64,000 nucleotides of DNA from a phage: assembly GCA_024572335.1 (NCBI GenBank), contig GCA_024572335.1_3052.1. One strand, written 5' to 3'. Position numbers and translations under genes: made by a program. The notes beneath the pieces are model-generated. The model ran no database searches and was not told where the DNA came from. It worked only from the letters and a program-made list of their open reading frames with translations. The first letter of the stretch is position 1; every line of letters starts with the position of its first letter. Positions 11,770-19,622 of the stretch are shown in pieces.

Positions 11770-11970
11770 ATGGTACAAAAATTAATGGCACTTGTTAATG
11801 CCATAAAAGGTAATAAGAAACGTATAGCTTTTACTATTTCTGCTATGATAGGAATTTTACTTTGGAATTTTGTTTTATCGCCAGTTGCTATTGCTCATGG
11901 CGTTAGTATTCCAGTAGTTACTCTTGATACATTCGTAGATTTAGCATTTGCTTTAGTTGGGTTAATTTAA
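11770..11970 (+). CDS. Small hydrophobic membrane protein, the only convincing plus-strand gene
   Basis: 66 aa; strong RBS AAAGGAGG 5 nt before ATG; predicted TM helix; stop codon overlaps gene 61 stop on the opposite strand. Confidence 0.5.
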   Translation: MVQKLMALVNAIKGNKKRIAFTISAMIGILLWNFVLSPVAIAHGVSIPVVTLDTFVDLAFALVGLI

Positions 11971-12995
11971 ATCTTAGCATATTTAGATAGCCGCATTTTA
12001 GCCATCAACCCCTGGGCAATATTATTTTTCATATATTCCATAATTTGTTCAGGGGTTGCACCTTCCTTTCTAATCATATCATTAACATCTTTTGATTTCC
12101 AGGGAGATTTATCCCAAAACATAACCCTTTCTCCTGCATCAACTAATTTAGTCATTCGTTTAATAGTGTCAGGGTGACGAGGTTCATTATCTAAGACCCA
12201 CACTCGTCTATCTTTAAATGGAACAACTTCTAGGTCTAATTGACCACCCGTAATAGCTATACCATTTTCAATAAAAAGTGAATCTATAGGTCCTTCTAGA
12301 ACATATACATCACCATCTTTGACTCGTTCGACTCCATAGATTTTTGTTGCCTCAGGATAAGCTTTGATGGTGATATATTTTTGAGGAGCATCTTTCTTTA
12401 ATGCACGTCCTTGAAAAGACTCAGCTTTTCCGTTAGCATTATAAATTGGAATAACAAGACGAGGCTCAGGTGTTTCCTTTTTATATGTTCCTGGAGCTAT
12501 ACTATTAACTAATTTAGGCCATTCAGTTGTAAACCAAAGATATTTCCATTTATCCTTTGGAATACAACGAGCTTTTACATATTTTATAATTGCATGGTCT
12601 TCCGCCAATTTATCTAATCTGATGCATGACGGAAGAGATTTAATTATTTTCTTCTCAGGTTGTTTAGGAAGTTCTTTAGGTTTTTCTACTGGACGACTTT
12701 TACCTTTTTCTTTTCTTATTTCAAAGATATACTCACGATATAAATCAGGTTCAAACTCCTTTAAATATATTCCGATTGGTGCATGATAGTTACAGTTATA
12801 ACAATGAATATTTCCTTCATTATTATCACCGTAATACCATCCACGGGCTTTATTCTGGTCGGTTTTTGAATCTCCACAAACAGGACATCTAAACCGTAAT
12901 TTAAAAGTTGAACTATTATTTACTTGTGTGAATTTAGGTAAATGAGCTAATGCACGGTATGCAAACTCATTATCAATCCAAGGTATTGATGACAT
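11967..12995 (-). CDS. 61: DNA primase gp61
   Basis: 342 aa; zinc ribbon CPVCGDSK...CYNC; TOPRIM-like EGPIDSL; adjacent to helicase 41 region. Confidence 0.9.
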   Translation of the reverse strand: MSSIPWIDNEFAYRALAHLPKFTQVNNSSTFKLRFRCPVCGDSKTDQNKARGWYYGDNNEGNIHCYNCNYHAPIGIYLKEFEPDLYREYIFEIRKEKGKSRPVEKPKELPKQPEKKIIKSLPSCIRLDKLAEDHAIIKYVKARCIPKDKWKYLWFTTEWPKLVNSIAPGTYKKETPEPRLVIPIYNANGKAESFQGRALKKDAPQKYITIKAYPEATKIYGVERVKDGDVYVLEGPIDSLFIENGIAITGGQLDLEVVPFKDRRVWVLDNEPRHPDTIKRMTKLVDAGERVMFWDKSPWKSKDVNDMIRKEGATPEQIMEYMKNNIAQGLMAKMRLSKYAKI

Positions 12996-12997
12996 TT

Positions 12998-13162
12998 TTA
13001 CTCTTCTTTTTCTTTAGATTCCTCTTTTTTCTTTTTAGGAATCTGTTCAGGACCTTTATTTACTACAGCGCCTGATGTTGTTCCAGTAGAGATATTTTCA
13101 GGACTACCACCTGAATCTCCAGCGACCATATTTTCTTTGATAAATTCTTTATATGTTTTCAT
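12998..13162 (-). CDS. Small low-complexity protein with capsid-targeting-like N-terminus
   Basis: 54 aa ORF not in track (below 60 aa); translated by hand: MKTYKEFIKENMVAGDSGGSPENISTGTTSGAVVNKGPEQIPKKKKEESKEKEE; stop 2 nt before gene 61 ATG. Confidence 0.35.
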   Translation of the reverse strand: MKTYKEFIKENMVAGDSGGSPENISTGTTSGAVVNKGPEQIPKKKKEESKEKEE

Positions 13163-13206
13163 ATTAACCTCTATTCATAAAAGCATTAAAAATTTGGTCA
13201 TCAATA
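13160..13206. repeat. Direct repeat copy A (3' end of the 118-aa gene plus next start codon)
   Basis: About 47 nt, roughly 90 percent identical to 13518..13564. Confidence 0.8.
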
Positions 13207-13520
13207 GATGGCGCAGTAATATTTTCTGCATCATTTAGCAAATCATTAATTTCATCAGATAGCATAACACACGTACCTTTATTTCCTGTAATTGTTACTG
13301 CACAATTACGAACGTTTTCTTTATCAAATTTTAGGTTAATATTTTCATAGTGAAAATCCTTTAATGCCGAATATATCTTTAAAATGAAATTGTCTTTTAC
13401 TACAATAAACCCAACCTCACTATTAAAACGCGGTTCATGGAAACTGTAATAAACCTTTTCATCTATAAAATCGTATGAAATTTTTTCCATTTTTAAATAT
13501 GAAAATTCAGAACTATACAT
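13164..13520 (-). CDS. Hypothetical protein (61.1/61.2 region)
   Basis: 118 aa ATG ORF; C-terminal SIDDQIFNAFMNRG duplicated from upstream gene. Confidence 0.5.
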   Translation of the reverse strand: MYSSEFSYLKMEKISYDFIDEKVYYSFHEPRFNSEVGFIVVKDNFILKIYSALKDFHYENINLKFDKENVRNCAVTITGNKGTCVMLSDEINDLLNDAENITAPSIDDQIFNAFMNRG

Positions 13521-13564
13521 ATTAACCTTTATTCATAAAAGCATTAAAAATTTGATCGTCAATA
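13518..13564. repeat. Direct repeat copy B (3' end of the 213-aa gene plus next start codon)
   Basis: Near-identical to 13160..13206; both encode IDDQIFNAFMN[RK]G-stop. Confidence 0.8.
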
Positions 13565-14154
13565 GAAACTTTTACTTTAGGCTGTTCTTCAAACGGTAAT
13601 TCATATCCACATATTACAATTTTGTGATCGATACCAAAATACACAGAAGCAATATTATTAATATTATTTTCAGTGAAATCTAAATCAACATCAATATCTT
13701 TTTGACTAACGCTCAAAGGATAATTAATACGAATAATTCGATTATCTTTAACAAAGATTCCACCGACATACTCTGTGCTGCGTTTAAAGTTTACACGTTT
13801 CCTAAATGAAAAATATTCAGGTTCTTTATGCGCTCGACTCATAGGGCTTAAAGTGTATTCCGAATATGAAATATCAAATCCTACACCTTCAATATGAGCC
13901 AACGTGTCATGATTAAACCAATTATAATCATATGCCAAATCCATTATATTGTAATATGTGAAAGGCACCGGATTAACATCATGTGTTGTACCTTTAAAAT
14001 CTGCCCAGGCAACGATTTCGTTATCTTTAACAATTACAAAAATTGTGCCAATAAGATATCCACGGTTATTTTCATCAGGCGTTATATTATAACATTGTGC
14101 ATCAGGAAATTTACCGTATTTAAACGGTGGATTTTTGTGCATATAATAAATCAT
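13522..14154 (-). CDS. Hypothetical protein (61.1/61.2 region)
   Basis: Track ORF 13522..14163 has GTG start; ATG at 14154; C-terminal SIDDQIFNAFMNKG. Confidence 0.5.
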   Translation of the reverse strand: MIYYMHKNPPFKYGKFPDAQCYNITPDENNRGYLIGTIFVIVKDNEIVAWADFKGTTHDVNPVPFTYYNIMDLAYDYNWFNHDTLAHIEGVGFDISYSEYTLSPMSRAHKEPEYFSFRKRVNFKRSTEYVGGIFVKDNRIIRINYPLSVSQKDIDVDLDFTENNINNIASVYFGIDHKIVICGYELPFEEQPKVKVSIDDQIFNAFMNKG

Positions 14155-14155
14155 A

Positions 14156-14449
14156 TTATTCACCTGTGATTTCAGTTACGATATTTTTGTTATTAAAGTT
14201 TTTATCGCAATACAAAACATAATTATACTGCATTACACCACCAGACTTAAGCTGTTTTTGTACTTCAGCTTTCATTTCAGGGCGATCACGCTCAACGATA
14301 TTCATAATATCTGCTTCAATCTGAGTTTCAACTTCAGTCTGATCCGCAGTCATAGACCATTCACACAAATCTTTATCATAACCTGCCATAGCAGGCTGAG
14401 CAGCACAAGAAGCTAAAGCAAAAATTGCAGCAAAAACAAATTTTTTCAT
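14156..14449 (-). CDS. sp: Periplasmic protein Spackle-like (Sp)
   Basis: 97 aa with cleavable signal peptide MKKFVFAAIFALASCAAQPAMA; size and position as T4 sp. Confidence 0.6.
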   Translation of the reverse strand: MKKFVFAAIFALASCAAQPAMAGYDKDLCEWSMTADQTEVETQIEADIMNIVERDRPEMKAEVQKQLKSGGVMQYNYVLYCDKNFNNKNIVTEITGE

Positions 14450-14476
14450 GATAATCTCCTCAGTAGTTTATGTTTA

Positions 14477-14507
14477 TATAGTATCTCAATTTCCAACAAA
14501 AGTAAAC
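14477..14507 (-). promoter_or_regulatory. Early promoter upstream of sp
   Basis: GTTTAC, 17 nt, TACTAT; SD GAGGAG. Confidence 0.55.
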
Positions 14508-14509
14508 AG

Positions 14510-14767
14510 TTATTTTAAAACTTCTGCATAATCACATGTTACAAACTGTTTCTCTAACTTGACGATTTTACGAAAGTATCTTTTGCATTGACGAATCTGT
14601 CGCTTCGTAGGACGTACAGCAAACTTAATAAATTCCACTCGACCAAATGGAGGACTTTCTTCTGCTGGAATATCTAACACCAATTCCCACGTATCTGCAA
14701 TAAGTGCTTTGAATTGAGTATTTTTCCTGACGTTATACGGAGTAGGTTTAAATAAAACAATATGCAT
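14510..14767 (-). CDS. Hypothetical protein (61.4 position)
   Basis: Track ORF 14510..14821 has TTG start; ATG at 14767 (MHIVLF) follows SD AGGA and abuts dmd stop. Confidence 0.45.
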   Translation of the reverse strand: MHIVLFKPTPYNVRKNTQFKALIADTWELVLDIPAEESPPFGRVEFIKFAVRPTKRQIRQCKRYFRKIVKLEKQFVTCDYAEVLK

Positions 14768-14768
14768 A

Positions 14769-14951
14769 TTATCCTCGGAAATCCACTTCGCACACTTTCT
14801 TGTCATCAATGAAAGCTTCAACTAATGCTTTATTAACTTCAGCATATTGAGTAGTAGCCCATTGAACGTCATCTTTCATCATTGTGATTTCTTTAGTAAA
14901 CATGCTTTCATTCTTAAACCACCCCATAAAAACTACCTTTACCAATTCCAT
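14769..14951 (-). CDS. dmd: Dmd-like antitoxin (discriminator of mRNA degradation)
   Basis: 60 aa, same length and position as T4 Dmd (gene 61.5) just downstream of gene 41; own early promoter. Confidence 0.6.
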   Translation of the reverse strand: MELVKVVFMGWFKNESMFTKEITMMKDDVQWATTQYAEVNKALVEAFIDDKKVCEVDFRG

Positions 14952-18885: not shown

Positions 18886-19622
18886 TTCCACTCACCTTTA
18901 TAGTCTTTTTTCACAATATGAGTTTCGCCAGTATTCCACCAATGATCAACCAAGTAAAAATGACGAGAATATACATGAAGACTTCCGACATTCCATATAA
19001 TAGAACCTGCTTTATACTGACGAGTTGAATCGCCGGCATTCAAATCAGATACTAATTTATCTAATACGTATTTTTGCCATGCATAATCATTACGGAATCC
19101 GAAGACCACGTCATTTGAGCGCATGCTTACTACTGCATTGACTTTCTTATCACGAATCAGGTACTGTACTGTATTAGTACACATGAAATCTGACATACCA
19201 TCTTTATTGTAGTCAAATTGCATGGATGGACGAGTATAAATCATAATACCACGTCGAGAATCAGGGTTTTGACCAAGTTCAGCTAAACACATATCATACT
19301 GGGCGTAGTTATCTTCTGACCAAATAGCCCAACCGTAATTCGAATTAATTTCGCCTTTAGAAGATGCGACCTGCTGCCAAATCTTTGGTGTTTCACCTGG
19401 AATATCTTTAACAAACAAGCTCTTAGATTTATACCATTCAAGTTCACGCTGAATGTATTCATCATTAAGAGCGCCAAAAATAAACGGTTCATCTGCTACA
19501 AATGATGTGCCAATAATTTCAATAGTTTTAACACCAGTTTTATCAACTACGAAATCTTTTTCTTTTAATGCAAGCCCCAAATGAAGACGGATTTCTTCAA
19601 CTGTCATAGAGTCACTAATCAT
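18882..19622 (-). CDS. 42: dCMP hydroxymethylase gp42
   Basis: 246 aa, size and position as T4 gp42; thymidylate-synthase-like fold. Confidence 0.85.
   Translation of the reverse strand: MISDSMTVEEIRLHLGLALKEKDFVVDKTGVKTIEIIGTSFVADEPFIFGALNDEYIQRELEWYKSKSLFVKDIPGETPKIWQQVASSKGEINSNYGWAIWSEDNYAQYDMCLAELGQNPDSRRGIMIYTRPSMQFDYNKDGMSDFMCTNTVQYLIRDKKVNAVVSMRSNDVVFGFRNDYAWQKYVLDKLVSDLNAGDSTRQYKAGSIIWNVGSLHVYSRHFYLVDHWWNTGETHIVKKDYKGEWK

Follow-up and report, generated by a model that had tools for sequence, protein, structure and literature searches.

The window analysed here, a stretch of 64,000 nucleotides from a T4-type phage (Tequatrovirus), carries in its equivalent of the T4 61.1/61.2 region two adjacent genes that end in almost the same 49 nucleotides. 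Both genes belong to the family of AdfA, the anti-DarT factor A, and we hold with moderate confidence that cassettes of this family share an end module, which would combine a tail peptide, a promoter, a translation start and a recombination handle.

A repeated gene end in two AdfA-family genes

The region is 98-99% identical to those of Escherichia phage JLBYU24, Shigella phage SHBML-50-1 and many others, and its genes are arranged on the minus strand in the order 41, dmd, 61.4 (tifA), sp, the 210/213-aa gene, the 118-aa gene, 61.1 and the primase gene 61. The relevant features are listed below.

14156..14449, minus strand: sp (spackle), left border of the variable slot
13522..14154, minus strand: adfA (T4 gene 61.2), anti-DarT factor A, 210 aa from ATG 14154
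13518..13566, minus strand: repeat copy R2, last 14 codons of AdfA (SIDDQIFNAFMNKG)
13546-13537 and 13524-13519, minus strand: MotA-box-like element and -10 of R2, both the same as in R1
Minus strand, within R2: Shine-Dalgarno weakened to AAGG; predicted start site 13512
13524-13522, one T, 13520-13518, minus strand: R2 junction, TAA and ATG of the 118-aa gene
13164..13520, minus strand: 118-aa short paralog of the AdfA C-terminal half, phrog_4122
13160..13208, minus strand: repeat copy R1, last 14 codons of the 118-aa gene (SIDDQIFNAFMNRG)
13188-13179, minus strand: MotA-box-like TAATGCTTTT of R1
13171-13168, minus strand: Shine-Dalgarno GAGG, within the 12-nt spacer of R1
13166-13161, minus strand: -10 TAATAT of R1; predicted start site 13154
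13166-13164, one T, 13162-13160, minus strand: R1 junction, TAA and ATG of 61.1
12998..13162, minus strand: gene 61.1, 54 aa, downstream of R1, with its ribosome-binding site and ATG inside R1
11967..12995, minus strand: gene 61, DNA primase, first complete gene on a transcript started at P61

The stop codon of sp overlaps the start region of AdfA (GAATAATATG). A mechanical ORF call begins AdfA at GTG 14163 (213 aa), and annotated relatives begin it at ATG 14154 (210 aa); the latter codon lies one base past the sp stop, in the same TAATATG junction as that at the end of the repeat module. Constructs of RB69 AdfA start at the fifth codon (MHKN) (PMC11257639). At the other border of the slot, the 54-aa product of 61.1 (12998-13162, minus strand) matches phrog_1823 over its full length and also the C-terminal part of phrog_2086 (positions 109-154 of 156), which makes it the second gene in this operon whose end is shared with a longer protein family.

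A repeat search identified two direct copies of 49 nt at 13160-13208 and 13518-13566 of the minus strand, 358 nt apart from start to start and identical at 46 of 49 positions (94%), the repeat being 2 nt longer than given in an earlier note on this DNA. Each copy comprises the last 14 codons of its gene (SIDDQIFNAFMN[R/K]G), the stop codon TAA, a single T and the ATG of the next gene. The copies differ by GAT/GAC twice, which is synonymous, and by one Arg/Lys change. The earlier note had described a gene-end repeat, a C-terminal peptide common to both proteins and identical translational-coupling junctions, and all of these were recovered. A search for the 49-mer allowing up to 3 mismatches returned exactly two sites in the 64-kb window, R1 and R2, and 0.00 matches in dinucleotide-preserving shuffles; a degenerate pattern at the peptide level likewise matched only R1 and R2 in the window. 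The arrangement with both genes was found, at a query coverage of at least 80%, in 126-155 independent phage genome records. The possibility that the repeat is a chance match or an assembly artefact has a negligible probability, since the former is ruled out by the absence of matches in shuffled sequence and the latter by the presence of the same arrangement in 126-155 independently sequenced phages.

The 210-aa gene matches the Pfam family PF23813 (AdfA) with 458.6 bits and is annotated as 'anti-DarT factor A' in PV857777. For the 118-aa protein, BLASTP gives an alignment to residues 114-213 of AdfA at 37% identity over about 100 residues (E 7e-11). It scores 31.9 bits against Pfam AdfA, where it covers profile positions 113-211 only; with membership defined as a score above the curated gathering cut-off, which is 27, both proteins belong to the family. 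Close homologs of the 118-aa protein have precomputed PF23813 hits, and the protein itself falls into a PHROG family of its own, phrog_4122 (E 2e-72). In databases the short gene is listed as hypothetical, or as 'gp61.2' in T2, and it has apparently gone unrecognised in published work on AdfA.

These data bear on the earlier proposal that a gene-boundary module alone had been reused. Recent copying of the boundary onto the end of an unrelated neighbouring gene would account for the contrast between 46/49 matching nucleotides in the module and 37% amino-acid identity upstream of it. However, homology between the two genes extends over about 100 residues and each of them matches Pfam AdfA, the tail predates the split of at least four subfamilies found in several genera, and T2-type phages have the short gene alone with the same tail. 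Such copying is therefore very unlikely, and the shared peptide, which the earlier note attributed to the reuse of a gene-boundary module, is instead an invariant signature of the whole family across several genera.

The short gene could also be viewed as the dead remnant of a truncated AdfA, with the repeat marking a decaying partial duplication. Its match is restricted to the C-terminal half of the AdfA profile, and in phage Elenatom AdfA itself appears to be broken into fragments. Against this stand a dN/dS of 0.07-0.32, the presence of the gene at 75% identity or more in about 299 phage records, its status as the sole family member in T2-type phages and its orthologs in Gaprivervirus at 43-48% identity. 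The AlphaFold2 (AF2) model points the same way: mean pLDDT is 82, and a domain of five strands plus helices is predicted at about 90, followed by a tail helix (106-115) at about 50. On these grounds, decay is highly improbable, and the 118-aa ORF is best taken as a real gene, a paralog of the C-terminal half of AdfA. In Elenatom (L004 1368-1990) the region of AdfA matches the window at 98-100% identity, but its annotation consists of two ORFs, 98 and 64 aa long; AdfA thus appears disrupted there, with the short paralog intact.

In its AF2 model, AdfA consists of a five-strand plus helix unit that occurs twice, followed by a low-confidence C-terminal helix. The 210-aa gene thus has the two-repeat architecture of about 210 aa, and the 118-aa protein corresponds to a single repeat. 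The N-terminal half of AdfA aligns with the short family in register but weakly (hhalign E 0.0032, 10% probability); together with the repeated secondary structure, this profile comparison is only suggestive of an internal duplication of AdfA itself. A wider profile search of the family over 1.84 billion cluster representatives gave only 10 hits, and all members among them with a visible source or genomic context were from T4-type phages.

AdfA binds and neutralises DarT1, and residue 164 of RB69 AdfA decides the outcome, Arg being inactive and His active (PMC11257639). The window AdfA is a full-length AdfA that differs from these characterised alleles in having Asn at the equivalent position (residue 167 counted from ATG 14154; 13654-13656, minus strand; TENNINNIAS), where T4 and the near-identical phage Ec_O157kw have His. 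The short protein resembles AdfA in comprising the C-terminal repeat, including the helix with the DarT1-specificity residue (RB69 164) and the tail, and in occupying the same position between sp and 61.1/primase; it is unlike AdfA in having one repeat rather than two. Its residue aligned to the specificity position is also Asn. T2 has been described as a phage that 'naturally lacks an adfA homolog' and whose DarTG1 resistance comes from AdfN (PMC11257639), although T2 does carry the short paralog, in the AdfA slot.

Gene content and recombination at the slot

Four states of the slot were distinguished among Tequatrovirus genomes: empty (sp-j-61.1), as in RB3; short gene only, as in T2; AdfA only, as in T4, KRT47 and PE37; and both genes, as in this window, O157kw and KAW1E185. 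Among 665 matching records about 155 have both genes and about 144 the short gene only, these counts being estimates from coverage classes rather than exact numbers; the remaining records have AdfA only (the T4 type, and Mosigvirus with a different downstream gene) or are rare empties. Genes of the homing-endonuclease kind adjoin the locus in some relatives: one is annotated beside the primase gene of DK-13 (L006 3943-4306), and an HNH gene lies between 41 and dmd in a metagenomic contig (L030 871-1491).

Multiple alignment of close relatives showed that the states differ by clean indels of 358 or 627 nt, with ends in the repeat or in its 14-nt tail. KAW1E185 and T4/KRT47, which are 96-97% identical, are separated by a single 358-nt gap. 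The window and PE37 differ by the same 358-nt gap, plus a 3-nt gap elsewhere. Between T2 and RB3, at 97% identity, a single 358-nt gap is bounded by 14-nt copies of the tail, one of which, j (TAGAGGTTAGTATG), follows sp, while the other, TAGAGGTTAATATG, belongs to R1. Three independent pairs thus have an indel of 358 nt, exactly one repeat period, and the window differs from T2 by a single 627-nt gap corresponding to the AdfA cassette. Identity changes along the locus in a mosaic fashion, the breaks lying at R2. The window and KAW1E185 have short genes that are 99% identical and AdfA genes that are 70-89% identical, and the reverse pattern is seen against Elenatom, where AdfA is 98-100% and the short gene 83% identical. 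That the module is a place of recombination is well supported, as judged from sequence comparison, by the clean one-period indels between close relatives and the identity jumps at the repeat.

Copies of the module group by genus and not by gene family: in Tequatrovirus they differ at 0-4 nt, and between genera mostly at 5-12 nt, Dhakavirus C6 being an exception at 2 nt. In DK-13 the two copies differ at 3 nt and have K-R in common instead of N-R. The copies of the Gaprivervirus phage EAWsc9 differ at 9 of 49 nt, so concerted evolution of module copies is not universal. In Dhakavirus C6, the end of a 145-aa gene (L025 2501-2546) differs from the Tequatrovirus module (13160-13208) at 2 of 49 nt, the rest of that locus gives no match by megablast, and other Dhakavirus copies differ from the C6 copy at 5 sites; this near-identity could reflect exchange between genera, or chance.

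How recently the copies were homogenised was evaluated against a null in which the peptide is conserved and codons are drawn according to the usage of 53 long ORFs of the window. The null expects 5.45 of the 13 shared-peptide codons to differ and the window shows 2 (P = 0.034), while copies of the KAW1E185 type, and likewise T4 compared with T2, show 0 codon differences (P = 4.5e-4). The null alone predicts a nucleotide identity of about 86%, and much of the identity of the repeat is explained by peptide conservation and codon bias. For the lineage, there is good support for homogenisation by recombination; for this genome alone, recent homogenisation is only weakly supported. The earlier suggestion of a recent recombination or duplication therefore stands in part: recombination at the module is borne out by the 358-nt indels and identity jumps, the reuse of a boundary module by itself is not, and the word 'recent' finds weak support in this genome.

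The same comparisons bear on a conservation acting purely at the level of the protein, according to which the genes are old tandem paralogs and the repeat is a by-product of biased codons and a standard junction, with no recombination involved. The high identity expected under the null, relative to which the excess in the window is marginal, agrees with this explanation, as do the divergence of the EAWsc9 copies and the invariance of the peptide in all subfamilies despite synonymous changes. It does not agree with near-identical phages differing by indels of exactly one repeat period, with identity jumping at the repeat in both directions, with the absence of any synonymous codon difference in the KAW1E185 type and between T4 and T2, or with the grouping of copies by genus rather than gene family. 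Conservation of the protein without recombination is consequently regarded as rather improbable, and the module that also serves as a recombination handle is the preferred interpretation.

Tail peptide, promoter and translation start

The DDQIFNAFM tail is invariant in at least four subfamilies of this slot, distributed over several phage genera: AdfA (208-216 aa), the short proteins (116-125 aa), a 145-aa and a 120-aa subfamily. Between genera the synonymous divergence of the module (pS 0.38-0.65) approaches that of the gene bodies (0.62-0.82), yet the peptide is unchanged, which argues for selection on the tail at the protein level. In the AF2 models of both proteins the tail is a predicted helix behind a low-confidence linker, with a pLDDT of about 45-55, and it is probably a short helix carried on a variable flexible linker, acting as a docking or partner-binding element. 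The fourth subfamily (P0068, 120 aa) has a barely recognisable body and was found in the slot after sp of a 173-kb metagenomic T4-like contig (L030 3001-3363); its end reads TDDQIFNAFMNRG and then AGAGGTTAATATG and differs from that in the window by four synonymous changes.

A sliding-clamp-binding tail was considered as a candidate, prompted by the C-terminus SLDFLFG of gp43 in this phage, and was rejected. The pattern [ILVM]F[DNES].[FLMY], searched over all ORF C-termini, matched no replication protein, its matches being the two genes and two short unannotated ORFs. A link between the AdfA-family tail and sliding-clamp binding is speculative.

The earlier note had missed that the T4 middle promoter P61 lies inside the repeat. 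P61 is MotA-dependent, and its start site was mapped in T4, at position 19122 (Marshall, Sharma and Hinton 1999, cited in Table 1 of the review PMC2988021). R1 matches the end of T4 61.2 at 49 of 49 positions, and the T4 start site, in a coordinate system checked with Pdam, puts TAATAT at -12..-7 and TTAATGCTTT at -35..-26. The hexamer TAATAT consists in T4 of the 61.2 stop codon and the first bases of the 61.1 ATG, and TTAATGCTTT of the Asn-Ala-Phe codons of the tail. Given this identity to a mapped promoter, R1 can be assigned as the P61 sequence, with transcription predicted to begin at 13154, within codon 3 of 61.1, and a transcript that would serve the primase gene. The position of P61 inside the codons of a conserved peptide has apparently not been noted before.

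R1 reproduces T4 P61 base for base from the MotA box through the -10, and R2 keeps both elements and their 12-nt spacing, the one change in this stretch being in the spacer, GAGG to AAGG. The window phage, unlike T4, thus carries the promoter sequence twice, 358 nt apart. Both copies read TAATGCTTTT, 12 nt and TAATAT, which fits a MotA box (wwwTGCTTyA) located 12 +/- 1 bp upstream of TAnnnT, and both match the loose pattern TGCTT-N13-15-TANNNT. The window has 31 matches to this loose middle-promoter pattern where 15 +/- 4 would be expected, so that a single match is weak evidence; the minus strand, where all long ORFs listed lie, accounts for 22 of the 31. In phage Lutter (MT682714), a 27-nt 'promoter' (AATGCTTTTATGAATAGAGGTTAATAT) is annotated computationally at the equivalent place in both copies. 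The second promoter copy, R2, may also be active; a transcript begun at its predicted start, 13512, would be without the start codon of the 118-aa gene.

The exact MotA-box core is limited to Tequatrovirus and some Dhakavirus phages. Other genera have TGCCT, TGCAT or CGCTT as the core and some have TGATAT as the -10, with the peptide unchanged, so that the promoter role is a lineage-specific overlay on the module. The 13-nt end AGAGGTTAATATG, by comparison, hardly varies from genus to genus and is followed by at least four different genes.

A DNA or RNA signal, either P61 with the ribosome-binding site or an mRNA hairpin, might in principle drive the conservation, the peptide being a passenger. 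The mapped T4 P61 lies entirely within the module, and the near-invariance of the 13-nt end would be expected of such a signal. RNA folding around R1 (13140-13230, minus strand) also predicts, with a z-score of -1.98, a hairpin in which UCUAUUGAUGA is paired to UCAUGAAUAGAGG and which covers the Shine-Dalgarno of 61.1. However, the peptide remains identical in the genera where the MotA core, and sometimes the -10, is altered, and synonymous sites of the module vary almost as freely as those of the gene bodies. The hairpin has no equivalent in the R2 context (z 0.14), and an Rfam search at E up to 1 gave no match. In the AdfA repeat that is internal and not terminal, the motif is degenerate (HIEGVGFDIS), which also speaks against this explanation. 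A conserved mRNA hairpin as a feature shared by the copies was accordingly discarded, R1 being moderate and R2 near zero, and conservation driven by a nucleic-acid signal is considered unlikely as a whole. Selection on the tail, overlaid in some lineages by the promoter, is in better accord with these data.

The proposed end module and its relation to known systems

According to the preferred reading, the slot between sp and 61.1 of T-even-type phages would be a small array of paralogous cassettes of the anti-toxin type, two of them in this phage, each ending in one module with three jobs. The first job of the module would be to encode the invariant DDQIFNAFM peptide, predicted to be helical and probably serving in docking or partner binding. 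As its second job, in Tequatrovirus, the Asn-Ala-Phe codons would double as the MotA box, and the stop codon and next ATG as the -10 of P61, from which transcription would begin in codon 3 of the next gene and serve primase gene 61. In its third job, the final two codons together with the stop and the start that follows it would form a Shine-Dalgarno/TAA-T-ATG junction able to start translation of whatever gene comes next.

Because the module is repeated, cassettes could be exchanged at it. Crossover, homologous or unequal, between two copies or between a copy and the 14-nt remnant after sp would add, remove or swap cassettes and leave neighbouring genes undamaged, and recombination would also hold the copies within a genome nearly identical. 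For example, if the module of an AdfA-only phage crossed over unequally with j of a short-only phage, the 'both' and 'empty' states would arise as reciprocal products. The overlap of peptide, promoter and ribosome-binding site would in turn explain why the boundary is stable enough to act as a recombination handle.

On this reading the short gene may have an anti-toxin function. The slot with both genes lies inside a region that has been proposed as an anti-toxin-antitoxin island (PMC9391042). A more far-reaching form of the model, which we regard as no better than a tentative possibility, is a plug-and-play inhibitor array. In this form the module would provide a docking helix for a DarT-like toxin or a hub, a MotA promoter, a translation start and a homology handle with which co-infecting T-even phages stack, swap or drop specificities, and the lone short paralog of T2-type phages would be a functional inhibitor with its own target.

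Modular shuffling at repeated boundary sequences is already established in T4-type phages, and the present case is a further example. PeSLs, described in 2010, are short repeated regulatory sequences that flank non-essential genes of variable regions, and recombination between them inserts, deletes and replaces genes (PMC2839356; PMC4122927). The module resembles them as a short repeat that flanks variable genes and whose recombination changes gene content. In contrast, PeSLs are intergenic and contain a strong sigma-70 early promoter and a terminator stem-loop, whereas the module is coding, contains a middle promoter and lacks a terminator: a scan of 12800-14900 gave 0 terminator-like sites, and no match to a sigma-70-type promoter on the minus strand at the repeat. 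Membership in the PeSLs was ruled out by the lack of a terminator and of a sigma-70 promoter and by the coding position.

T4 has been shown experimentally to amplify and delete segments of this region through microhomologies of 6-10 bp (Srikant, Guegler and Laub 2022, PMC9391042). Those events took place in the same neighbourhood (dmd-tifA-sp-adfA) and by the same process, recombination between short direct repeats that alters gene content. They differ in that they involved unique 6-10-bp microhomologies during laboratory evolution, where the present case concerns a functionally constrained 49-bp repeat in natural isolates.

AdfA is among the few known phage inhibitors of DarT toxins and its mechanism is poorly understood. 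A single-domain paralog of it is present in hundreds of T-even-type phages, including T2, although T2 had been described as being without adfA, and the best-conserved part of every family member is a C-terminal stretch predicted to be a tethered helix. The locus also provides a compact case in which one DNA segment would be peptide, promoter and ribosome-binding site, and an anti-toxin island whose gene content shifts at a defined repeat. The significance of these features would grow if the tail and the short paralog do act in counter-defence.
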